Source: Hormoscilla sp.
GTDB lineage: Bacteria; Cyanobacteriota; Cyanobacteriia; Cyanobacteriales; Desertifilaceae
Assembly: GCA_051439505.1 (NCBI GenBank)
Contig: JBFRWI010000002.1
Coordinates: 60,924-92,923, forward strand
DNA: 32,000 nt
Reading direction: 5' to 3'
A program made the position numbers and the translations under genes. Shown piece after piece: positions 2,989-27,118 of the stretch (position 1 is the first letter of the stretch; every line of letters begins with the position of its first letter). The notes below the pieces were generated by a model. It had not been told where the DNA came from. It ran no database searches and saw only the letters and a program-made list of their open reading frames with translations.

Positions 2989-3005
2989 TGTCACTTTCTT
3001 GTCAC
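2989..3005 (+). promoter_or_regulatory. TGTCAC-N5-TGTCAC direct repeat upstream of the secreted OB-fold gene
   Basis: TGTCAC at 2989-2994 and 3000-3005 (11-bp spacing, followed by ATT as at 2474-2482), ~70-85 bp upstream of the ATG at 3076. Confidence 0.5.
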
Positions 3006-3075
3006 ATTCTGGAGTTAACGTCAGAATAGGACTACCCAAAAATAACTTTTGCCAACTAATTCAGGAACGATAATC

Positions 3076-3429
3076 ATGAACAAGACAATTGCCATAGCTT
3101 TATGTGCAGCTTCTTTTCTGTTGCCAGTTAGCGGAGTGCGAAGTCAAACCCCCATTGGAGATTTGCAGCGCCCTCATGGCGTTACTATTTCCGGCACCGT
3201 AAAGAGTGTAGTTGGTAATGAGTTTATTCTCCGCGACAGCAGTGGAGAAATTATCGTAGATGCGGGACCGCGCTGGAGGCAAGAAATTAATCTCACTCCC
3301 GGGGAACGAGTGACGGTTGTGGGTGAATACGACGACGATGATTTCGATGCTTATTCTATTTCTCGCAGTAGCGGTGAAGTCATCCAAATTCGTACCGAGG
3401 ATGATGATGATCCTTGGGAGGAACGGTAA
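3076..3429 (+). CDS. Secreted single-domain bacterial OB-fold (YgiW-like) protein
   Basis: ATG at 3076 has aggaa 8 nt upstream (the track's TTG at 3049 is less likely). Sec-type signal MNKTIAIALCAASFLLPVSG. Mature part GTVKSVVGNEFILRDSSGEIIVDAG...GERVTVVGEYDDDDFDAYSI is paralogous to the repeats in 1353-2384. Confidence 0.75.
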   Translation: MNKTIAIALCAASFLLPVSGVRSQTPIGDLQRPHGVTISGTVKSVVGNEFILRDSSGEIIVDAGPRWRQEINLTPGERVTVVGEYDDDDFDAYSISRSSGEVIQIRTEDDDDPWEER

Positions 3430-3759: not shown

Positions 3760-6627
3760 CTACTTAGCATCCATCCAATTATCGCCTGCATGAATATCAA
3801 CCACCAGCGGCACGGTTAACTCCACAGCAGATTCCATCGCGGTCTTGATTTCCGATTGTAACACTTCCCACTCCTCTGGGGGAACTTCAAATACTAATTC
3901 ATCATGCACTTGTAATAGCAATCTCGCCTGGTACTTCTGTAACCGTTCATCCAGTTTTACCATCGCTATTTTGATGATATCCGCACTCGAACCCTGAATG
4001 GGCGCATTCGCTGCGGCCCTTAACATCCCAGCATCGTTCCTACCGAGAGCGAAATTAAATTTGTTTAAGTCGATCTCTTCGGGATCCCTTCCTTTCATCT
4101 TCTGCAAGGTTCCATTTTCAAACTCGAAGTAGCGACGCCGCCCTAATATTGTTTCCACATATCCACGGGCGATCGCCTCCTTCTTCACCCTCTCCAAATA
4201 GGCAAACACGCCTGGATAGCGTCGATAAAACCGCTGAATAAATTCTTTTCCTTCTGCGCTTGTCACTCCCGCCGATCGGGCAAATTTTTGCGCCCCCATG
4301 CCGTAAATAACGCCAAAGTTAATCGTCTTACCCACACCTCGTTCCGCTGGCGTTACTGTTTCCTTTTCAAATAGCAGTCGGGCCGTGACTGTATGAATAT
4401 CTGCATTTTGCTGGTAAGCCTCAATTAACACCGGTTCCTGACTCAGATGTGCCAAGATCCGCAACTCTATTTGGGAATAGTCTGCCGATAGCAACAACCA
4501 GTCCTGTTCCGGTAAAAACGCCTTTCTAATTTGCCGCGAAAATTCCGTTCTAATGGGAATATTCTGTAAATTAGGATTGGAAGAAGAAAGTCGTCCCGTT
4601 CCCGTCACCGTCTGATTGAAATCTGTATGCACCCGCTGGGTATCCCCACGCACCAACTGCGGTAAGGCATCCACATATGTTGATTTTAACTTGTCCAGGG
4701 TGCGATATTGCCAAATCAGATCGACCACCGGGTGATCCTCTTGCAGTTTTTCCAGGGTAGCGGCGTCAGTAGAATAACCCGTCTTAATTTTCCGAGATTT
4801 CTTGCTATCTAAACCCAGCTTCTCAAACAGCAACTCACTCACCTGTTTAGGTGAACCCAGGTTGAATTTATCTCCCGCTTCCCGATATGCTTGTTCTTCA
4901 ATCTTTGCCAACTCTTTTTGCAACTGTTGCGAGAGTTCCTCCAGGTATTTGCTATCAATCCTGATCCCGGTATATTCCAGGGCTGCTAGAATTGGTTCTA
5001 AAGGCTGTTCTACCTCTAGCAGCAGCTTCTGCAAAGCTGGTACTTGCTGGAGTTTAGCACTCAACTTCTCTACCAATTGGAAGGTTGCCTGCAGCTGCTG
5101 GCCACAGTAATATGCTACTGTCGGGATATCTACCTCCGCAATTGTTTTCCCCTTTGGCACTACTTCAGAGTAGCTTTTCATCTTCAGCACCAGATTATTC
5201 CTCATTGACAAGTCTTTGAGGTTATGAGGCTTTTCTGGATCTAGGACGTAACTTGCTAGCATGGTGTCAAAACCTACCCCTTGCAGTTCTATTCCCTGAC
5301 ATCGCAGGACTAGGCGATCGCCCTTAGCATTCTGGAACGCTTTGGGATAATCTCCACTTTCGAGAATGGGACGCAAAGCCTCTAGAACCATAGCCATATC
5401 CAAATTATCCCCCGTTACGTGATGAATGGGAATATAAGCAACATCATTGGCATCCGTTCCCCAGCAGCAACCTATTCCTACCAGTTGCGAGTTTCGCGGT
5501 TTTAACTCTGTAGTTTCCGTCTTCCAGGCTACCGGTACATCCCTGCAACCTTGCAATTGCTTTACCAATGCCGTTAGTTTAGCCTCGGTATCAATGATGG
5601 GCGGCCCTACATCTTTGTCTTTGTAGAGATCTAGTTCTAATTGCTGCTGGATGCCGCGAGGGCTTTCCTCTGTTCTCAGTTCCGTTACGGTCCCGCCCAA
5701 TATCTCTTGTAGCTTCCCAATTTTATCCAAAAACTTCTTGAGTTCTAATTTTAACAGTATCGGTTCTACCCGCCCCATGTCAAAACCTGTCAACTGGCAG
5801 TCTTCTAGGCTAATTTCTATCGGCACGTCAAGCTTCAACTGGGCCATATACTGGGAATGATAGGCGGAGTCTTTCCCCTCTGCTAGCTTTTTATTCACGG
5901 CTCCTTTAATATTGTCTAAGGCAGCATATATATTGTCGAGACTGCCGTATTCCTTAAGCAGCTTGACCGCCGTCTTTGCCCCTATCCCTCTGACTCCGGG
6001 AATGTTATCGGAACTGTCCCCGCAGAGGGCTTTATAGTCAACTACCTGTGTTGGGGGAATGCCTAATTTCTCTATCACTTCCTCTGTTCCGAACTCGGTG
6101 GCCCTACTAGATCGCTGGTTGTAACCGCCACCCATGTACAATACCGTGATGTTTTTGGCTTCGTCAACTATCCCGAATAAATCCCGATCGCCCGTCAGCA
6201 CCTTTACCCGATAACCTGCTGCACTCCCCTCTTGCGCTAATGTTGCCAAGACATCATCTGCTTCATATCCCGCACTGCTTACCAGGGGCATATTTAATGC
6301 CTGTAGCAGTTCCTGGAGATTTTCCATGTCTGGGATAAAATCTGCTGGCGTTTCCGCCCGCCCTGCCTTATAGTTAGCATCTGCCTGGTGCCGGAATGTT
6401 GGTTCCGCCCGATCGAATGCTACCGCGATCGCCTGGGGTTGGTGAGATGCGATCGCCTCTAGCATACTATTTAGAAAACCAAAGCAGACGCTAGTGGGAT
6501 TTTTTGTGGAAGTTCTCAGTCCGCCGTTCCTACTTTTAGCAAAAGCATAGTAAGAACGGAAGGCTAAGGAGTGACCATCTATTAACAGCAACAGGGGCGG
6601 ACCCTTCATCTCGGTGGAGTTTGACAT
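3760..6627 (-). CDS. polA: DNA polymerase I
   Basis: 955 aa. 5'-nuclease N-terminus (LLLIDGHSLAFRSYYAF, GDSSDNIPGVRGIGAKTA). Pol A motifs DYSQIELRILAH, RRxAKTINFG-like (GVGKTINFGVIYGM) and QVHDELVFE. Confidence 0.97.
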   Translation of the reverse strand: MSNSTEMKGPPLLLLIDGHSLAFRSYYAFAKSRNGGLRTSTKNPTSVCFGFLNSMLEAIASHQPQAIAVAFDRAEPTFRHQADANYKAGRAETPADFIPDMENLQELLQALNMPLVSSAGYEADDVLATLAQEGSAAGYRVKVLTGDRDLFGIVDEAKNITVLYMGGGYNQRSSRATEFGTEEVIEKLGIPPTQVVDYKALCGDSSDNIPGVRGIGAKTAVKLLKEYGSLDNIYAALDNIKGAVNKKLAEGKDSAYHSQYMAQLKLDVPIEISLEDCQLTGFDMGRVEPILLKLELKKFLDKIGKLQEILGGTVTELRTEESPRGIQQQLELDLYKDKDVGPPIIDTEAKLTALVKQLQGCRDVPVAWKTETTELKPRNSQLVGIGCCWGTDANDVAYIPIHHVTGDNLDMAMVLEALRPILESGDYPKAFQNAKGDRLVLRCQGIELQGVGFDTMLASYVLDPEKPHNLKDLSMRNNLVLKMKSYSEVVPKGKTIAEVDIPTVAYYCGQQLQATFQLVEKLSAKLQQVPALQKLLLEVEQPLEPILAALEYTGIRIDSKYLEELSQQLQKELAKIEEQAYREAGDKFNLGSPKQVSELLFEKLGLDSKKSRKIKTGYSTDAATLEKLQEDHPVVDLIWQYRTLDKLKSTYVDALPQLVRGDTQRVHTDFNQTVTGTGRLSSSNPNLQNIPIRTEFSRQIRKAFLPEQDWLLLSADYSQIELRILAHLSQEPVLIEAYQQNADIHTVTARLLFEKETVTPAERGVGKTINFGVIYGMGAQKFARSAGVTSAEGKEFIQRFYRRYPGVFAYLERVKKEAIARGYVETILGRRRYFEFENGTLQKMKGRDPEEIDLNKFNFALGRNDAGMLRAAANAPIQGSSADIIKIAMVKLDERLQKYQARLLLQVHDELVFEVPPEEWEVLQSEIKTAMESAVELTVPLVVDIHAGDNWMDAK

Positions 6628-12369: not shown

Positions 12370-13428
12370 TCAGCGTTTGCTGTGGTTGCGTATGGATTTA
12401 TGGATCTTCTTCCACTTTTCCTTTTCCACTAAAGCAGCGTTCTTGTCTTGGCGATCTCCCAGATGCTTCAACTCTTTTTGCAGCTTTTTATAGCTCAAAA
12501 AGCGCTTGAGTTCCAGCATTCCCTCCTGGATAGCTTCTTGGACTGCACATCCGGGTTCGCGATCGTGCTGACAATCCCGAAAACGACATGCTTGGGCCAG
12601 GGTTTCGATATCCGCAAAGGTATCTTCCAACCCAACATCTTGGGCCCAAATTTGGATTTCCCGCATTCCCGGCGTATCGATCAGCAAACCACCCGATGGT
12701 AACTTTATCAATTCCCGATGGGTTGTCGTATGGCGTCCCCGATCGTCCCCTTTTCTCACTCCTTGCACCTTTTGCAGCATTTTCCCGGTTAATTGATTGG
12801 CGATCGTGGACTTTCCGACCCCCGAAGACCCCAGCAATGCTACGGTCTGTCCCGGTTGCAGGTAAGAAAGCAGTCCATCCAATCCTTGTTGGTTAACTGC
12901 GCTTAAGGTAATTATCGGCACCAGAGGGGCGATCGCCTCTACTGCCAGTATCCGTTCGTCAACATCTGAGCACAAATCAGCCTTATTCAAAATAATGACA
13001 GGATTAGCGCCACTTTCCCAAGTTAGAATCAGATAGCGTTCGATCCTCCTGAGATTAAAATCCCCATCCAATCCCGACAGCAAAAAGACAGTGTCAATGT
13101 TCGTCGCCACAATTTGCGCTGCTGTTTTCGCACCCGCCGTTTTCCGACTAAATTTGCTTTGGCGGGGCAAAACATCATGGATGGTTGCCGTTTTTTCCTC
13201 TGGGACATTAATAACGACCCAATCTCCTACCGCTGGCAAATCCTCCTGACCGGATGCTTGGTATCGCAGTTTCCCAGTCACCTTTGCCGACAGTTCTCCA
13301 AACTCACTGTAGACAATGTAACTGTTTTTGTGTTCCCGGGCAACTCTCGCCGCCGCGTATCCTGCTTGTTGGTAGCTTTCAAAACTTGCGGCAAAAAAAC
13401 TTTTCCAACCTAATTCCTCTAGGTTCAT
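12370..13428 (-). CDS. rsgA: Ribosome small-subunit-dependent GTPase A
   Basis: Circularly permuted GTPase motifs (NKADL ... [14 protein letters not shown] ... DTPGMRE) and C-terminal zinc knuckle [17 protein letters not shown] at 13428 with gagga 8 nt upstream is preferred over the GTG at 13470. Confidence 0.93.
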
Positions 13429-13465
13429 TGAAGTTTCCTCTAGGTAATTGCTTGTAACGGCAACA

Positions 13466-13542
13466 CTCACAGAGGAAAGCGCGCTTTGCGCTTACTACAA
13501 ACGGCGCTCAAGCGCTTGCAAACCTGTTATCGCCTCTGTGAG
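13466..13542. repeat. Long hairpin (10-bp stem) enclosing smaller GC hairpins between iscB and rsgA
   Basis: ctcacagagg (13466-13475) pairs with cctctgtgag (13533-13542). The interior aaagcgcgctttgcgcttactacaaacggcgctcaagcgctt resembles the 3691-3755 units. Confidence 0.6.
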
Positions 13543-13604
13543 GTGCGCGGGTTGTTGCTTGACCATCCGAACAGCATACTAAAAAACTGGTAATTTCCGG
13601 AAAA

Positions 13605-14870
13605 TCATCCCCATTTATACGCATATCCATCTCTTCTGAAGATAGGTTTTAGGTCTATTGGCTTGACTGACTTCTGGGTTTTGTCAGGTTTGGTCAACAT
13701 AAAACTACCGCGACTTCTGGGAGTAATTCTACCTATTCCATGAACTTTATGCTTGGCAATATCGCCAGTTTGCCATCCCTTGATGGGCTTTAATGGATTG
13801 TGACGGATTGGATATCCGTACTTGTTAAGAGCAGCTTTTTGACGACCTCCACGCCCCTTGCAAGTAATGAGTAGTGGCCGAGTAGTTGCGATTTTTAACA
13901 TGGGTGTACTTCTTCCCACACAAGCTGCATCGAGCCAATGAGTTTTGGGCAATCCTTGAAGAGTTCGGTTGTATTTTGTCAAACCACCCGTGCCAGTTTC
14001 AATGGCTAATCCAGTTTCCTTAAGGCGGTTAAACAATGCCCATCGGGTAGAGTTGACTGCCGCTGCATCTTTTAGGGGGGCTTTTGCTTGCGCTAGCAAC
14101 CGCTTCAAAACTTCCGGCTTCTTTTTTAGGAATTGCTCGACAGCAGAGGCTGCTTTTTTCTGGTTGCATTTATGGCAAGCGATAGCCAGATTGCTAACTC
14201 GGTCGGAACCTCCCTTACTCTTGGGATGAATGTGTTCGATTTCTAACGGGACTTCTTTGGCACCGCAGTAGGCACACTGGTGTCGCCATTTGGTCAAGAG
14301 ATATTCCCTCAACTCGTATCCAAACAAGACTCCATGCTGGTACTCAACCCCTGATATCTCAGGGTTTTGCAGCTTTTGTGTGTCAAACCGCACTAGCTCC
14401 ATTGAGATGTCCGTTATCGGGCAATACTTCCGCAGGCGCTTGACCCAGGTCATGACAGTTTCAACTCGATGTTGCAGGCTGGGAGCTAGCCATCCAAGGG
14501 GGCGCTTCCTGTTATTGAATCTCCCAGGACGATAACGAGTCTTACGGTTACGACGATTGCGACGAACAGCGCGACGGTCTGCTAACTTTTTCTTGATCGA
14601 GTCGCCTCTGTGAGTCAATTCCGCTGCCCATACAACTGTACCAGTCTTCTCATTCACTAGCACAATACCAGTCACTTTAGCTCCTGGGTCTAACTTAATC
14701 CGATGAGGTTCTAAGCCTGGATCTTCAACAGTTCTTCTGAGGATAATCGTAAACGGATAGGTTCTGAAAACCGCAGCCTTGCCCTGCTTTAAGAGCTTTC
14801 GCGCCCTGGCAGGGTGAATAGGATTGAGCCGCTGCTTGTTGGCATCTAAAACGAAAACACAATTTTGCAT
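13605..14870 (-). CDS. iscB: IscB, OMEGA-type RNA-guided endonuclease (split RuvC with inserted HNH)
   Basis: 421 aa. PLMP-like N-terminus VFVLDANKQRLNPIHPARARKLLKQGKAAV. RuvC-I IKLDPGAKVTGIV (Asp61). Arg-rich bridge helix RRAVRRNRRNRKTRYRPGRFNNRKRPLGWLAPS. RuvC-II ISMELVRFD. HNH CAYCG..LEIEHIHPKSKGGSDRVSNLAIACHKCN. RuvC-III THWLDAACVG. Confidence 0.9.
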   Translation of the reverse strand: MQNCVFVLDANKQRLNPIHPARARKLLKQGKAAVFRTYPFTIILRRTVEDPGLEPHRIKLDPGAKVTGIVLVNEKTGTVVWAAELTHRGDSIKKKLADRRAVRRNRRNRKTRYRPGRFNNRKRPLGWLAPSLQHRVETVMTWVKRLRKYCPITDISMELVRFDTQKLQNPEISGVEYQHGVLFGYELREYLLTKWRHQCAYCGAKEVPLEIEHIHPKSKGGSDRVSNLAIACHKCNQKKAASAVEQFLKKKPEVLKRLLAQAKAPLKDAAAVNSTRWALFNRLKETGLAIETGTGGLTKYNRTLQGLPKTHWLDAACVGRSTPMLKIATTRPLLITCKGRGGRQKAALNKYGYPIRHNPLKPIKGWQTGDIAKHKVHGIGRITPRSRGSFMLTKPDKTQKSVKPIDLKPIFRRDGYAYKWG

Positions 14871-15191
14871 TTAAGCAACTCCCAAAAAAGGGGTAAAGTT
14901 TGCCTCGGTCATGTTAAGGGTGCTTTTTACATCTAACTCACGCGGTCCTACAAAATCCATTCGTTCCGTTCCTTAAAGCTAGACGACAGAGCTACGAGCT
15001 GGCGCTCACCCGTAGGTATCATGACTCCCCTAACGTAGGTCTGATCCTGGACCTGCATCTTGCATCTTCCCGAGGGAGATAATTCCAACAAAGGTCAGAA
15101 ATTACCGGATTTTATGCAAGAGCTACCGACTCAGACATATTCTTTCTCCTGTTTTTACTTCAACGCTAACGCAACGCTAAATTTTAGCTAT
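14871..15191 (-). ncRNA. Candidate IscB omega-RNA (HEARO-type) 5' leader
   Basis: No ORF of 60 aa or more on either strand across 14871-15417. It lies directly 5' of iscB, where omega-RNAs are encoded. A near-consensus promoter sits at its 5' edge. Local stems include atcttcc-cga-ggGagat at 15064-15080. The 5' boundary and the fold were not determined. Confidence 0.55.
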
Positions 15192-15197
15192 ACTTCT

Positions 15198-15226
15198 ATT
15201 ATAACATAGATTGAAGCGAAACTCAA
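15198..15226 (-). promoter_or_regulatory. Sigma70-type promoter facing iscB
   Basis: Minus strand reads TTGAGT (15226-15221), a 17-bp spacer, then TATAAT (15203-15198). Confidence 0.45.
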
Positions 15227-15240
15227 CTTGCATTGCTGCT

Positions 15241-15413
15241 GTTGGGTTTCGTACCTGATACTGTTGGCCAATTAATTGGGGGGTATGACCCATTATCAGC
15301 CTCAAATGCTGATTGGGCTTGACTTTCCCCCCCCCTCCCCCCCTCCCTCCCTCACCCCCTCAGACGCCCCCGAATTGGTAATTCGCCAACAGCATCCCGT
15401 ACCTCAACCCAAC
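15241..15413. mobile_element. MITE-like element: ~40-bp imperfect terminal inverted repeats around a C-rich/G-rich core
   Basis: Left arm gttgggtttcgtacctgatactgttggccaattaattgg (15241-15279) matches the reverse complement of 15372-15413 (gttgggttgaggtacgggatgctgttggcgaattaccaattc). The core holds the C-run tract 15327-15371. The element ends 10 bp from the sodA stop. Confidence 0.5.
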
Positions 15414-15423
15414 CTACATGAAT

Positions 15424-16149
15424 TTAGGTAGAACGCGCCTGGGCAAACCGTTTATTCACTTCATCCCAGTTCACCACATTCCACCACGCCTTCAGGTACG
15501 CACCCCGATCGTTCCTGTAGTTGAGATAATAGGCATGTTCCCAAACATCATTTCCCATGATGGGATATTTGCCCTCCATCAAGGGACTATCCTGGTTAGG
15601 GGTACTCATCACCTCCAACTTGCCATCAGCAGTATAAACTAACCAGGCCCAACCACTGCCGAAACGCTTGCTGCCAGCATCGTTGAATTGTTCTTGGAAC
15701 TTGGCAAAGCTGCCAAACGCGGCATCCATGGCAGAGGCGATCGCCCCAGTTGGCTTCCCGCCAGCATTAGGAGCCATAATTTCCCAGAACATCTTATGAT
15801 TCACATAGCCGCCGCCATTATTGCGCACCGTTGTCTGGATATCTGCGGGAATACTTTTAATATTGAGCAGCAGTTCTTCTCCGCTGGTGCCTTTCAGTTC
15901 CGGATATTTGTCTAATGCCTTATTCAAGTTCCGGGTGTAACCAGCATGATGTTTGTCATGGTGAAACTTCATCGTTTCCGCATCGATGTATGGTTCCAAG
16001 GCATCGTAGGCATAGGGGAGAGGCGGTAACTCGAAACTACCCGCGTTCTGTTCCCCTGAATTGTCCCCAGATGCCTGGCAAGCACCGAAAGTGATGGCAC
16101 CGACCCCGACTCCCAGCATATACAAGAAATTCCGACGATTTACAACCAT
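15424..16149 (-). CDS. sodA: Mn-type superoxide dismutase with twin-arginine signal and lipobox-like cysteine
   Basis: [21 protein letters not shown] (Mn-type pattern) and [10 protein letters not shown]-terminus [27 protein letters not shown] at 16149 is preferred over the upstream TTG at 16173. Confidence 0.9.
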
Positions 16150-16208
16150 AATTACATCTTTCTCAATTCTCAATTAACAATTGCTCAATTCTGGCATTGC
16201 CAAATAAA

Positions 16209-17399
16209 TTAGGCAGATCTTGACTGAGAGAGGCGTTTTACTTCTTCACCTCCTAGCAACTGATGCGCCTCTTCTAGTAAAGCAGGGATTTTGTCTCCAT
16301 GGGGACTATTCGCCAGACATTCGCGCAAGTCCATTTCCCGAACCCGCGAGGCATTATTTCCCGGAAACCAGTGACCTGCGTTACCCAGCAGATTATAGCG
16401 CCCTTTGGCATAGTCAATCATGTCGTAGGCCAGGGCGAGATTCCTCAACCACAGGATAACGGGAATATTGATGTTACCAGGCGTGTGATCGCACTCGGGT
16501 AATCCCACATGCCAGGTTTTCACCCAATCTTCCCCCAGAGTAGTAATTGCCTCCCGTTCCAACCGCCCTAAAATCGGCGGCAATATCTCTCCCGCCCGGT
16601 CTAATAGGGGCAAAACCTGCAAGTGTTCGTCAAAATCCGTCGGTCGTGCCACCCCCACACTGAGAGTATGTACCTGCTTGTGAGAAAGACAAAACAGGTC
16701 ATTAAACTGCATCGGAAGAAGGGGTTTACATAACTCTAGCAACTTGGGCGGCGGATCGTAAAGTTTCCCCCCCTTATCGGAAGGACTGATGATGAAAACA
16801 CCCAGATCGTGACGTTGCGCAGCTTCTATAGCAGGCCAGTTAACTTGATTGATGTAGTACCAGTGGAGATTCACGTAGTCAAACTGGTCGGTTTCAATAG
16901 TTTTGACAATGATGTCCGTCGGACCGTGAGTCGAGAAGCCAATAAACCGCACCTTGCCTTCCTCTTGCAGCTTCCGGGCCACCTCCAGACAGCCACCCTC
17001 TCGGATACTCTCGTGCAGCAACTCCGCCGTATTGATACCTTGCAGGGAGAGCAAATCAACATGGTCCAGCTTCAGGAAAGCCAGGGACTGCTCGAAATCA
17101 CGCCGAAACTCGACAGTGTCTGACCGGGGACTAATCTTGGTCTGGACAATTATCTGTTCGCGAGGAAACTGGGGCAAAAGCTGGCCTAGTTGCATCTCCG
17201 ATGTGCCATAGATCCTAGCCGTTTCAAAGTGATTGATGCCGACTTCTAAAGACCGACGAATATTTGCTTCCAGATTGCACTGGTTCTCCTCTGGAATCGA
17301 AGATATTAGCACATCCTCCCACTTATATTGATAGCGCATGCCACCGCAGGAGAATACTGGCATAAGTAGTTCTGTGCGCCCAAATCGTCTGTATTCCAT
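16209..17399 (-). CDS. Aldo/keto reductase family oxidoreductase (paralog 1)
   Basis: 396 aa. (Y)RRFGRT.L..PVFS.GGMR N-terminus and AKR-like core (INH.ETAR.YGTSE, VDLLSL.GIN). Highly similar to 17522-18703. Confidence 0.85.
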
Positions 17400-17521: not shown

Positions 17522-18703
17522 TTACGACTGAGAAAGGCGTTTTACTTCTTCACCTCCTAGCAACTGATGGGCCTCTTCTAGTAAAGCAGGGATTTTGTCC
17601 CCGTGGGGACTATTCGCCAAACATTCGCGCAAGTCCAGTTGCCTCACCCGCGAAGCCTGATTTCCCGGAAACCAGTGACCTCCGTTACCCAGCAGGTTAT
17701 AGCGCTTTTTGGCATAGTCAATCATGTCGTAGGCCAGGGCGAGATTTCTCAACCACAGGATAATGGGAATATTTATGTTATCAGGCGTCCGATCGTACTC
17801 GGGTAATCCGACATGCCAGGTTTTCACCCAATCTTCCTCCAGAGTAGTAATTGCCTCCTGTTCCAATCGCCCTAAAATCGGCGGCAATATCTCCTCCGCC
17901 CGGTCTAACAGGGGTAAAACCTCCAAATGTTCGTCAAAATCTGTGGGTCGCGCCGCCCCCAAACTGAGAGTATGTACCTGCTTGTGAGAAAGACAAAACA
18001 GGTCATTAAACTGCATCGGACTAAGGGGTTTACAGAGTTCTACCAACTTGGGCGGCGGCGCGTAAAGTTTGCCCCCCTTATCGGACGGACTGATGATAAA
18101 AACACCCATATCCTGGCGTTCCGCAGCTTCGATCGCAGGCCAGTTAACTTGATTGATGTAGTACCAGTGCAGATTCACGTAGTCAAACTGGCCAGTCTCA
18201 ATAGTTTTGACAATAATGTCTGTCGGACCGTGAGTCGAGAAACCAATAAACCGCACCTTGCCTTCGGTTTGCAGCTTGCGGGCCACATCCAGACAGCCAC
18301 CCGGTCGGATACTGTCGTGCAGCAACTCATCAGTATTGATACCGTGTAGGGACAGCAAATCGACATAGTCCAGCTTCAGGAAAGCCAGGGACTGCTCAAA
18401 CAGACGCAGAAACTCGACTGTGTCTGACTTGGGATAAACCTTGGTCTGGACAATCAGCTGTTCGCGAGGAAACTGGGGCAGAATCTTGCCCAGCTGCATC
18501 TCCGAGGTGCCATAGTCCCTAGCCGTTTCTATGTGATTGATGCCGACTTCCACAGACCGGCGAATAGTCGCTTCCAGATTGCGCTGGTTGTCCTGGGGAA
18601 TCTCCGATGCTGGCAGATCCTGCCACTTGTATTGATAGCGCATACCGCCGCAGGAGAATACTGGTATTTGCAATTGAGTGCGCCCAAATCGTCTGTATTG
18701 CAT
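17522..18703 (-). CDS. Aldo/keto reductase family oxidoreductase (paralog 2)
   Basis: 393 aa, collinear with 16209-17399 along its full length with scattered substitutions. Confidence 0.85.
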   Translation of the reverse strand: MQYRRFGRTQLQIPVFSCGGMRYQYKWQDLPASEIPQDNQRNLEATIRRSVEVGINHIETARDYGTSEMQLGKILPQFPREQLIVQTKVYPKSDTVEFLRLFEQSLAFLKLDYVDLLSLHGINTDELLHDSIRPGGCLDVARKLQTEGKVRFIGFSTHGPTDIIVKTIETGQFDYVNLHWYYINQVNWPAIEAAERQDMGVFIISPSDKGGKLYAPPPKLVELCKPLSPMQFNDLFCLSHKQVHTLSLGAARPTDFDEHLEVLPLLDRAEEILPPILGRLEQEAITTLEEDWVKTWHVGLPEYDRTPDNINIPIILWLRNLALAYDMIDYAKKRYNLLGNGGHWFPGNQASRVRQLDLRECLANSPHGDKIPALLEEAHQLLGGEEVKRLSQS

Positions 18704-25435: not shown

Positions 25436-25912
25436 TCATTCTTGCAATTGAAAAGTGAATATTTCCTCGATCGTCATCGAATCAAACCAAGGTTGGCGGA
25501 CGCGGATAAAGTCTCCACCTTCGGGATCGAAAGACTGGATAAATTGCTTGGTTCCTGCCAGTCCGAGAGCCTTCCGAAGGGCCTCAATTCCCATTTGCCG
25601 AATCTGGGCCTGAGTCAGCTTGCTAGTATCGAGAGCCGTCTCCAACCGGTGATGTGCTAAATCCTTTTGCTTTTTGCGATCCACCTGTTCCTCTTGCTGC
25701 TCTTGCTCTTTGGCTAATTCCACAATTTCCGCCAGGGTAATATCTCCGAGCAGTTGATCCCTATCTCGGGTATAATCGCCACTGCCGTTGGAAAATTGAT
25801 GGATAAATCGCACCATACCCACCGACCCCAGAGCTTGACTTAGAGCTTCTCTTCCCGCTTCCATAATATCTTCGTGAGTTACCGGGCTAACTTCTATCAT
25901 TGCTTCTATCAT
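25436..25912 (-). CDS. Putative PIN-partner (antitoxin-like) protein with two internal repeats
   Basis: 158 aa. Repeat 1 IMEAGREALSQALGSVGMVRFIHQFSNGSGDYTRDRDQLLGDITLAEIVELAKE. Repeat 2 IRQMGIEALRKALGLAGTKQFIQSFDPEGGDFIRVRQPWFDSMTIEEIFTF. An acidic/basic linker joins them. The start (ATG 25912 or 25900) overlaps the PIN gene's 3' end. Confidence 0.6.
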   Translation of the reverse strand: MIEAMIEVSPVTHEDIMEAGREALSQALGSVGMVRFIHQFSNGSGDYTRDRDQLLGDITLAEIVELAKEQEQQEEQVDRKKQKDLAHHRLETALDTSKLTQAQIRQMGIEALRKALGLAGTKQFIQSFDPEGGDFIRVRQPWFDSMTIEEIFTFQLQE

Positions 25913-26354
25913 TGATAACCTCCTCGCTCCACCGAGCCGGGTTCTCTACTCTAACTTTTAGCATAGCGCTAGACCGAACTGCCAAACGCAACATTCTGTC
26001 ATCGGTTGTCAGCAATACGTCGGCATTGCCATTTTCGGCACAGGCGATATGTAGAGCATCAAAATATTTAAATCCTAGGCCAGCCAATTCCTGCGTTCGG
26101 GTGATTATATCATCGCTTAAGGTAACTTTATTTTTCGCTAAACCCGCCCAGAGCATCATTTGCTGTTTTCTTTCGACCGTAGGGGTCCGAGCTAACTCTA
26201 TATCAATCGCCGTGCTACCCAACAAGTGCCACTGAGCATTTCGACAACGGTCTATTATGAGTTCTACCGCCTGCGCTTCCAGACTCACCCGTTCTTGGCT
26301 CAGATCGTCAAAAGGCCGATTCAGGCAACAAATATCTAAATAGATTAAAAACAT
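25887..26354 (-). CDS. PIN-domain ribonuclease (VapC-like toxin)
   Basis: MFLIYLDICCLNRPFDD supplies the first acidic residue. FDALHIACAENGNADVLLTTDDRMLR is the typical C-terminal PIN motif. 155 aa. Confidence 0.75.
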   Translation of the reverse strand: MFLIYLDICCLNRPFDDLSQERVSLEAQAVELIIDRCRNAQWHLLGSTAIDIELARTPTVERKQQMMLWAGLAKNKVTLSDDIITRTQELAGLGFKYFDALHIACAENGNADVLLTTDDRMLRLAVRSSAMLKVRVENPARWSEEVINDRSNDRS

Positions 26355-26539: not shown

Positions 26540-27118
26540 ATGGTATATTTACAATCGCCTCTGGAATTAGAACTGCAACTCACGGACGAGCAATTTTTTG
26601 AGCTTTGTCAAAAGCATCGTAATTTGAAATTTGAGCGCAATGCAACTGGAGATTTAATCATTATGTCACCAACTGGAGGAATAACTAGCGATCGCAACTC
26701 GGATATTAATTTTCAACTCAGGGCCTGGAATCGCGATCGAAAGCTGGGAAAAGTTTTTGAATCATCCGGCGGATTTAAGTTACCCAATGGGGCCGATCGC
26801 TCTCTCGATGCTTCTTGGGTGAAACTGCAACGCTGGAATGCTTTAACATTAGAACAGCAGGCCAAATTAGTACCCTTATGCCCTGATTTTGTGGTGGAAT
26901 TGCGCTCTCCTTCCGATGCCTTAAGTAAGGTGCAGCAAAAGATGAATGAATACATAGAAAATGGGGCAGAATTGGGATGGTTGATAGACCCCAAACGGCA
27001 AGTCGTGGAGGTTTATAGGCCCTCACAGGATGCGGAAGTGTTGCAGTCGCCCAAGACTGTATCGGGAGAAGCGGTACTACCGGGCTTTGTTTTGGACTTG
27101 ACGGAAATTTTCTCTTAG
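26540..27118 (+). CDS. Uma2 family (DUF820) restriction-endonuclease-fold protein
   Basis: KFERNATGDLIIMSPTGG, DASWV and CPDFVVELRSPSD match the Uma2 pattern. 192 aa. Confidence 0.8.
   Translation: MVYLQSPLELELQLTDEQFFELCQKHRNLKFERNATGDLIIMSPTGGITSDRNSDINFQLRAWNRDRKLGKVFESSGGFKLPNGADRSLDASWVKLQRWNALTLEQQAKLVPLCPDFVVELRSPSDALSKVQQKMNEYIENGAELGWLIDPKRQVVEVYRPSQDAEVLQSPKTVSGEAVLPGFVLDLTEIFS

Follow-up and report, generated by a model that had tools for sequence, protein, structure and literature searches.

The HEARO RNA is now called the omegaRNA of IscB (Goltsman et al. 2022; Meers et al. 2023), and Arthrospira supplies the reference HEARO effector, Ama-1-1 (Goltsman et al. 2022). In the model of Meers et al. 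(2023) the omegaRNA scaffold comes from the right end of the transposon and the guide from the DNA just outside that end; transcription has to begin in host DNA, and the target-adjacent motif (TAM) is the target site of the transposase TnpA beside the left end. The same authors found iscB insertions to be biased to co-oriented, transcribed sites, and only about 1.5% of iscB genes to have tnpA nearby. For ISC transposons Kapitonov et al. (2016) listed the targets GT/GG, GT/RA, TT/GG, TT/GA, N/ATGA, CC/CG and AA/GG (question-marked); here and below a slash marks a junction. We analyzed a stretch of 32,000 nucleotides from the sponge-associated cyanobacterium Hormoscilla sp. (contig JBFRWI010000002.1), referred to as the window. 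It very probably carries a recently inserted, non-autonomous ISC/IscB element of the IS200/IS605 superfamily, 1.55 kb long, which lies between sodA and rsgA and consists of IscB and its omegaRNA.

An IscB protein with intact catalytic residues

The open reading frame (ORF) at 13605–14870 on the minus strand starts with ATG and encodes 421 amino acids. Judged by its sequence the product is a genuine IscB, with the full order of PLMP-like region, RuvC-I, bridge helix, RuvC-II, HNH and RuvC-III and with intact catalytic residues. This had been the central claim of a first-pass annotation made from the letters of the window, which had proposed a search with profile hidden Markov models as a check. 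When this search was carried out, the NCBIfam equivalog model guided_IscB (NF040563) matched residues 5–319 with 478.5 bits against a cut-off of 175, and the Pfam family RRXRR, which represents the N-terminal region of IscB, matched residues 5–180 (8.5e-74; 247.6 bits, cut-off 25). HNH, HNH_5 and HNH_4 all matched residues 199–250. Among PDB sequences TbaIscB came first (1.6e-44), followed by several IscBs, OgeuIscB (1e-28) and then IsrB and small Cas9s. The E-values of the Pfam, NCBIfam and PDB matches span 1e-29 to 1e-144 and are thus far past chance. NCBI names a 100%-identical protein “MAG: RNA-guided endonuclease IscB [Hormoscilla sp.]” (MAG, metagenome-assembled genome). Among the 8,000 best candidates scored, at least 7,999 homologs reached E ≤ 1e-20; the best 120 listed come mostly from filamentous cyanobacteria (Moorena, Limnospira, Coleofasciculus, Microcoleus).

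Every motif quoted in the first-pass annotation was found at its place. RuvC-I (LDPG) carries Asp61, the bridge-helix segment GRFNNRKRPLGWLAPS comprises residues 116–131, RuvC-II (SMELVRFD) carries E158 and RuvC-III (THWLDAACVG) carries H311 and D314. The HNH domain is inserted between RuvC-II and RuvC-III, and its motif CAYCG...EIEHIHP...N...CHKCN provides the zinc cysteines C199/C202 and C232/C235 as well as the HNH residues H213, N227 and N236. The OgeuIscB segment to which it had been likened, ARFNNRKRPVGWLTPT, is genuine and aligns to GRFNNRKRPLGWLAPS. D61/E158/H311/D314 align with D61/E193/H340/D343 of OgeuIscB and H213 with H247, the roles of the OgeuIscB residues being those of the published structures. 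In an alignment of 20 homologs (60–91% identity) the catalytic residues, the four zinc cysteines and N227 are invariant, and N236 is kept in at least 90%, which bears out the earlier statement that the RuvC and HNH motifs are intact. Residues 5–45 align to the PLMP region of TbaIscB and OgeuIscB, the motif itself reading RLNP. At 421 amino acids there is no room for a recognition (REC) lobe; the beta-rich C-terminal 80 residues are presumed to form the TAM-interacting domain.

An AlphaFold model was built without RNA on the 20-homolog alignment (predicted local distance difference test, pLDDT, 67). When it was compared with the PDB by Foldseek, the nine best entries were IscB or IsrB complexes (E 2e-24 to 6e-17, probability 1.00) at template modeling (TM) scores of only 0.36–0.44, which are low because the domains are placed otherwise in a model without RNA. 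The leading entries 8csz (E 2.4e-24), 9liq, 9nvu, 7xht and 7utn are IscB-omegaRNA complexes; IsrB and then Cas9 follow, placing the fold nearer to IscB than to Cas9. Many homologs bear the JGI label “5-methylcytosine-specific restriction endonuclease McrA”, and together with the HNH Pfam domains this label would suit a plain HNH endonuclease of the McrA type, devoid of a RuvC fold and of an RNA guide. We give this identity practically no chance: the RRXRR/RuvC region outscores HNH by far, the D-E-H-D residues of RuvC align to OgeuIscB, the structure search yields IscB, IsrB and Cas9 but no McrA, and a HEARO RNA lies upstream of the ORF. Together with the guided_IscB match, the RRXRR score, the OgeuIscB alignment and the Foldseek result exclude it.

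Element ends, empty sites and omegaRNA

The IscB element and its immediate surroundings comprise the following features:

13575–15122, minus strand: whole non-autonomous IS200/IS605-type (ISC) element, 1548 bp, delimited by copies and empty sites; junction ambiguous by 2 nt
13575–13604, minus strand: iscB-distal end (left end in TnpA convention), with the imperfect palindrome TTTCCGGAAA at 13594–13603 and a GGAAATTACC core
14880–15122, minus strand: omegaRNA (HEARO) scaffold; Rfam core 14893–15063, 3' limit of about 14880 approximate
15123–15138, minus strand: predicted guide ATGTCTGAGTCGGTAG, host DNA immediately 5' of the scaffold; length of 16 nt assumed
13572–13574, minus strand: CTG (plus strand, CAG), predicted to be the TAM as well as the TnpA target; the empty sites have a single copy, which follows the protospacer directly on its 3' side
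15198–15226, minus strand: sigma-70-like promoter site TTGAGT-17-TATAAT with extended TG, from a promoter scan; co-oriented with the element and 76 nt upstream of it
13495–13574, minus strand: 3' fragment of a split host small ORF, the 5' 16 nt of which lie at 15123–15138

The ends were placed by comparison with copies at other loci. Homology with seven Hormoscilla copies and several copies of the Arthrospira type, all at unrelated loci, extends from CTYTTGCATAAAATCC to TTTTTTAGTATG(CTG). A paralog of 89% identity at an unrelated locus of Hormoscilla sp. GM7CHS1pb can be aligned only from CTYTTGCATAAAATCC (15122) to ...TTTTTTAGTATGCTG (13572), its flanks being unrelated. A genome scan revealed further copies with the same sharp boundaries in Hormoscilla GUM202, GM7CHS1pb and SP12CHS1 (87–93% identity, unrelated loci) and in Arthrospira platensis. 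Scanning metagenomes for the omegaRNA core gave 6 stretches from 5 contigs. Five of these stretches supplied five more proximal junctions, which start with CTNTTGCAT (CTCTTGTAT in one copy); the distal end was found in none of the 6 stretches, and an exact metagenome scan for the Hormoscilla-type distal end returned 0 contigs. All of the 10 independent distal junctions end at .../CTG, followed by unrelated sequence. Both ends contain imperfect palindromes around a common GGTAATT/AATTACC core, the GGAAATTACC core of the distal end recurring as GGTAATT in the other. If the plus strand of the window is taken as the top strand for TnpA, the left end begins at 13575, directly after CAG (13572–13574), and the right end stops at 15122; what had earlier been called the right end, after the iscB stop codon, is accordingly the left end in the TnpA convention (Meers et al. 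2023).

The element is flanked by rsgA (PF03193, 1.2e-51; 12370–13428/13470) and by sodA (15424–16173), which encodes an Fe/Mn superoxide dismutase with Tat signal (PF00081/PF02777), both in the orientation of iscB; the Pfam matches agree with the earlier description of the neighbors as housekeeping genes. The loci of the closest RsgA orthologs (95, 89 and 88% identity) show the order DUF2325, aldo-keto reductase, sodA, rsgA, with a spacer of 263–353 bp and without iscB. These related genomes with rsgA beside sodA thus provide the empty site to the insertion that had been proposed between the two genes. The three independent empty sites (L049, L051 and L054) read ...GTCGGTAG-CTG-TTCGGATGG..., and the two states compare as follows:

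Empty state, junction: ...AGGAGAAAGAAATATGTCTGAKTCGGTAG CTG TTCGGATGGTCAAG...
Occupied state (window), junction: ...ATGTCTGAGTCGGTAG / CTCTTGCAT...AGTATG / CTG TTCGGATGG...

The element has no terminal inverted repeats, and comparing the empty with the occupied state shows no target-site duplication. The insertion point lies immediately 5' of CTG in the orientation of iscB, and the 2-nt ambiguity of the junction arises because the dinucleotide CT is present at both junctions. Two repeats after the iscB stop codon had been put forward as candidates for the element end, and both exist. The tttccggaaa palindrome (13594–13603) does lie inside the terminal 30 nt. The second, a 10-bp inverted repeat CTCACAGAGG/CCTCTGTGAG at 13533–13542 and 13466–13475, forms a hairpin (13466–13542) that is found in all three empty sites; since it is present in loci free of the insert, it is host sequence and not an element end.

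CTG, which has a background frequency of 1.8%, is predicted to be both the TAM and the TnpA target motif. Once the element is in place, CTC rather than CTG follows the protospacer. It is conceivable, if doubtful, that the Hormoscilla/Arthrospira clade of IscBs (418–430 amino acids, about 15% smaller than OgeuIscB) uses a minimal 3-nt CTG TAM that abuts the protospacer, in which case a single base would set empty sites (CTG) apart from occupied ones (CTC or CTT). If true, such a TAM would be unusually permissive for so small an RNA-guided nuclease.

The RNA upstream of iscB, mentioned but not identified in the first-pass annotation, is the HEARO/omegaRNA scaffold. An E-value search of positions 13300–15600 gave a match to HEARO (RF02033) at 14893–15063 on the minus strand as the sole match (74.7 bits, E 1.2e-14); at Rfam gathering thresholds no match was obtained in the whole window. 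The scaffold lies within the 252 nt upstream of iscB on the same strand, and its 3' end runs into the ribosome-binding site GGGAG of iscB, 8 nt before the ATG. Its 5' 59 nt (15064–15122), which the Rfam model leaves unaligned, fold into a P1 stem (TCTTGCAT/ATGCAAGA) specific to the clade, with a hairpin (GGTAATTTC.../...GGAATTATC) inside it; from copy to copy this hairpin has undergone compensatory changes, e.g. from U-G to A-U. The consensus fold of the clade contains 75 pairs, and compensatory changes occur in 3 of these. In 15 of the 20 homologous loci searched, HEARO scored above the gathering threshold at the same position upstream of iscB.

The guide of the omegaRNA is predicted to be the 16 nt of host DNA adjoining 15122, a length which is assumed. 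This sequence, ATGTCTGAGTCGGTAG, has a single match in the window and equals nucleotides 1–16 of the small host ORF that the insertion disrupts. The promoter-like site at 15226–15198 is also kept in the empty-site loci and therefore belongs to the host and not to the element. It probably drives both omegaRNA and iscB, and its placement fits the bias for co-oriented, transcribed insertion sites described by Meers et al. (2023). Promoter-like similarity upstream of one other copy (L001) had raised the possibility that the element reaches further; this was rejected, as the empty sites retain the promoter of the window and other copies have unrelated flanks. In a Poribacteria MAG (L020; 1263–1456 and 1606–1845) a HEARO/IscB element is preceded, at a distance of 150 bp, by a cobalamin riboswitch (114.5 bits); this is another insertion into a transcribed leader and is in line with host-driven omegaRNA expression.

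Taken together, these features suggest the following mechanism. Read-in transcription from the host promoter-like site would yield an omegaRNA carrying the guide ATGTCTGAGTCGGTAG, copied from the adjacent host DNA, at its 5' end. The IscB-omegaRNA complex could recognise the empty site or donor joint, in which the same 16 nt are followed by CTG in place of the element. Excision would leave the protospacer beside CTG (predicted donor joint ...GGTAG/CTGTTCGG) and in this way recreate the IscB target. The RuvC and HNH sites would then cut both strands, and recombination with the sister chromosome would restore the element. New insertions next to CTG would need a Y1 TnpA provided in trans from elsewhere in the genome.

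Host context, selection and possible fates of the insertion

The absence of a TnpA gene near iscB, as noted earlier, holds for the whole window. A probe for IS200 TnpA was first validated against PF01797 (131 bits). With this probe tblastn detected no TnpA in the window or in 55 loci (47 of related IscBs, ±3 kb), nothing being better than E 1.8. Likewise a Pfam scan of those ORFs in the window that were still unassigned gave no Y1_Tnp; it found PIN, Uma2, RpiA, MOSC, phytoene synthase, fumarase and AAA domains. A solo IscB without tnpA is the norm for IscB. Two of the ORFs assigned in the window, a weak PIN-domain ORF at 25887–26354 (23.7 bits, at threshold) and a putative restriction endonuclease of the Uma2 family at 26540–27118 (5.5e-42), lie about 11 kb from the element and are unrelated to it.

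The ORF, ribosome-binding site and scaffold of the window copy are all intact. Comparing it with three full-length sister copies gave ratios of nonsynonymous to synonymous substitution rates (dN/dS) of 0.11–0.22 at dS 0.30–0.41, which shows that purifying selection acted on the protein as the family spread.

The first-pass annotation had left open whether the gene was non-autonomous or domesticated. The former stands, as there is no TnpA in cis. Domestication would mean that this copy is fixed and no longer mobile, its nuclease or RNA serving the host, e.g. by controlling rsgA or the small leader ORF. Such a role could be read from the lack of TnpA in cis, the intact ORF and the site, which has housekeeping genes on either side, a host promoter before it and the co-oriented rsgA after it. 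Yet the insert is missing from the three closest available sodA-rsgA loci (rsgA 88–95% identical), sister copies with identical ends are located at unrelated loci in three other Hormoscilla MAGs, and the presence or absence of the insertion is already polymorphic at the species level. Moreover, the lack of TnpA and the co-orientation with the upstream host gene are general in mobile IscB elements (Meers et al. 2023). We therefore regard domestication as highly improbable and the locus as a recent insertion of a non-autonomous element.

Several observations weigh against this reading. The HEARO match of 74.7 bits remains below the Rfam gathering score of 83, a shortfall that arises because the first 52 model positions, the divergent 5' domain, do not align. 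The AlphaFold model is moderate (pLDDT 67; TM score to IscB structures about 0.4). Only one base separates the occupied site from the TAM (CTC vs CTG), and an abutting TAM of 3 nt is shorter than characterised IscB TAMs (e.g. NWRRNA); the real one may be longer or degenerate. Finally, the sister copy L005 (Hormoscilla GM7CHS1pb; 3001–3198) has a premature stop at codon 65, indicating that some copies are decaying. Decay of this kind, together with the fragment copies L008, L046 and P0015 and the lack of TnpA in cis, would also suit an inactive relic, i.e. a stranded element whose ORF and RNA are intact merely through its youth, and an omegaRNA started at the host promoter would, if not processed, have about 50 nt of additional host leader at its 5' end. 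Against a relic stand the intact catalytic and zinc-binding residues, the dN/dS of 0.11–0.22, which reflects selection during the spread of the family, the conservation of the scaffold with compensatory changes, and the good ribosome-binding site and promoter context. A relic is thus improbable, if slightly less so than domestication.

On the host side, the recently inserted element splits a small ORF of 24 codons after codon 5. The intact orthologs (L049 4840–4914, L051 and L054) are conserved, have a strong ribosome-binding site, AGGAG, upstream and encode MSDSVAVRMVKQNPAHLTEAKIGL and variants, followed by a stop codon. The version in the window runs into the element and reads MSESVALA before its stop; the former stop codon has changed from TAA to CAA. 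The 24-codon ORF is located downstream of the conserved promoter and upstream of rsgA and overlaps the 5' arm of the 10-bp-stem hairpin, which looks like a leader-peptide or attenuator arrangement. An insertion into a known structured RNA was considered and rejected: the empty site L049 gave no Rfam match better than E 6.7. The element now separates rsgA from the promoter-like site at 15198–15226. No minus-strand terminator was predicted between iscB and rsgA, and rsgA is presumably transcribed by read-through.

Further differences between the loci were noticed in the local host sequence. In the hairpin loop (13476–13532; L051 4860–4950) a unit of about 24 nt, GTTTGTAGTAAGCGCTTTAGCGCC, with its own GCGC hairpin forms a small variable tandem repeat, which occurs once in L054 and about twice in L051, with the window and L049 intermediate. 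The sodA terminator hairpin, intact in L054 as GTAGGTTGGGTTGAGGTACGAAATCCAACCTAC, contains in the window an insertion of about 160 bp resembling a miniature inverted-repeat transposable element (15259–15416, minus strand), which is missing from L049, L051 and L054. It has AGGTACG on both sides and imperfect terminal inverted repeats (GATGCTGTTGGCGAATTACCAATTCGGGGG vs GATACTGTTGGCCAATTAATTGGGGGG), and includes a long run of G, GGGGGTGAGGGAGGGAGGGGGGGAGGGGGGGGG, which might fold into a G-quadruplex. Upstream of sodA two highly similar aldo-keto reductase paralogs of 396 and 393 amino acids are arranged in tandem (16209–17399 and 17522–18703); L049 also has two copies, L051 and L054 one each.

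Comparison with described IscB elements

IscB, HEARO/omegaRNA, the usual lack of TnpA and the abundance in cyanobacteria have all been published, and the locus carries little weight as a discovery. It is a clean worked example, with ends defined to within 2 nt, an empty site, a predicted guide, a short candidate TAM and a promoter-like site 76 nt upstream, and it is an instance of the published view that IscB elements persist at sites where their guide RNA can be produced by transcription from the host. For trials of a compact IscB of 421 amino acids it could offer a ready design.

OgeuIscB-omegaRNA (PDB 7xht, 8csz, 7utn) is the best fold match and has the same domain order and catalytic residues. 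The bridge-helix segment, RFNNRKRPxGWLxP, is nearly identical in the two proteins, whereas overall identity is only about 20–30%. The window protein is 75 amino acids shorter (421 vs 496), with a smaller N-terminal third and C-terminal domain; it has RLNP in place of PLMP at the N-terminus and, as in Cas9, Asn in place of His as the second HNH metal ligand. The putative TAM differs as well, CTG (inferred) compared with NWRRNA.

Among the ISC transposons of Kapitonov et al. (2016), ISC1_CC of Coleofasciculus, ISC2_GS of Geitlerinema and ISC1_MA of Microcystis are likewise non-autonomous, IscB-only elements of filamentous cyanobacteria. ISC elements in general also share the lack of terminal inverted repeats and target duplication, the subterminal imperfect palindromes and the short specific targets deduced from empty sites. 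Their list does not include the target in the window, N/CTG (or CT/G, since the junction is ambiguous by 2 nt).

GstIscB of Geobacillus stearothermophilus (Meers et al. 2023) follows the same donor-joint model, with the scaffold at the right end, a host-transcribed guide outside it and the TAM at the left end. There a trans-acting TnpA has been demonstrated and the TAM is the 5-nt, AT-rich TTCAT; the candidate motif in the window is CAG in left-end orientation.

The HEARO ORF of Arthrospira/Limnospira is 77–79% identical to the window protein. Gene order, RNA scaffold and ends are common to both (CTCTTGCATAAAATCCGGTAATT... on the RNA side and ...GGTAATTACCAG...CTG on the distal side); they differ in the 5' stem-loop of the scaffold and in the last ~20 nt of the distal end (TTTTTTAGTATG in the window vs GTTATAGATATA). 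The RNA of an Arthrospira copy (L009) passes the Rfam gathering threshold at 84.2, whereas the window RNA falls just below it. At the same Arthrospira locus a group II intron domain (5473–5550) is found 1.6 kb downstream of the IscB element. In all, the element in Hormoscilla is an ordinary member of the well-described HEARO/IscB (ISC) elements, with a protein already annotated as IscB; mildly new in comparison are only the predicted CTG target/TAM and the base-level picture of how a host promoter is captured.

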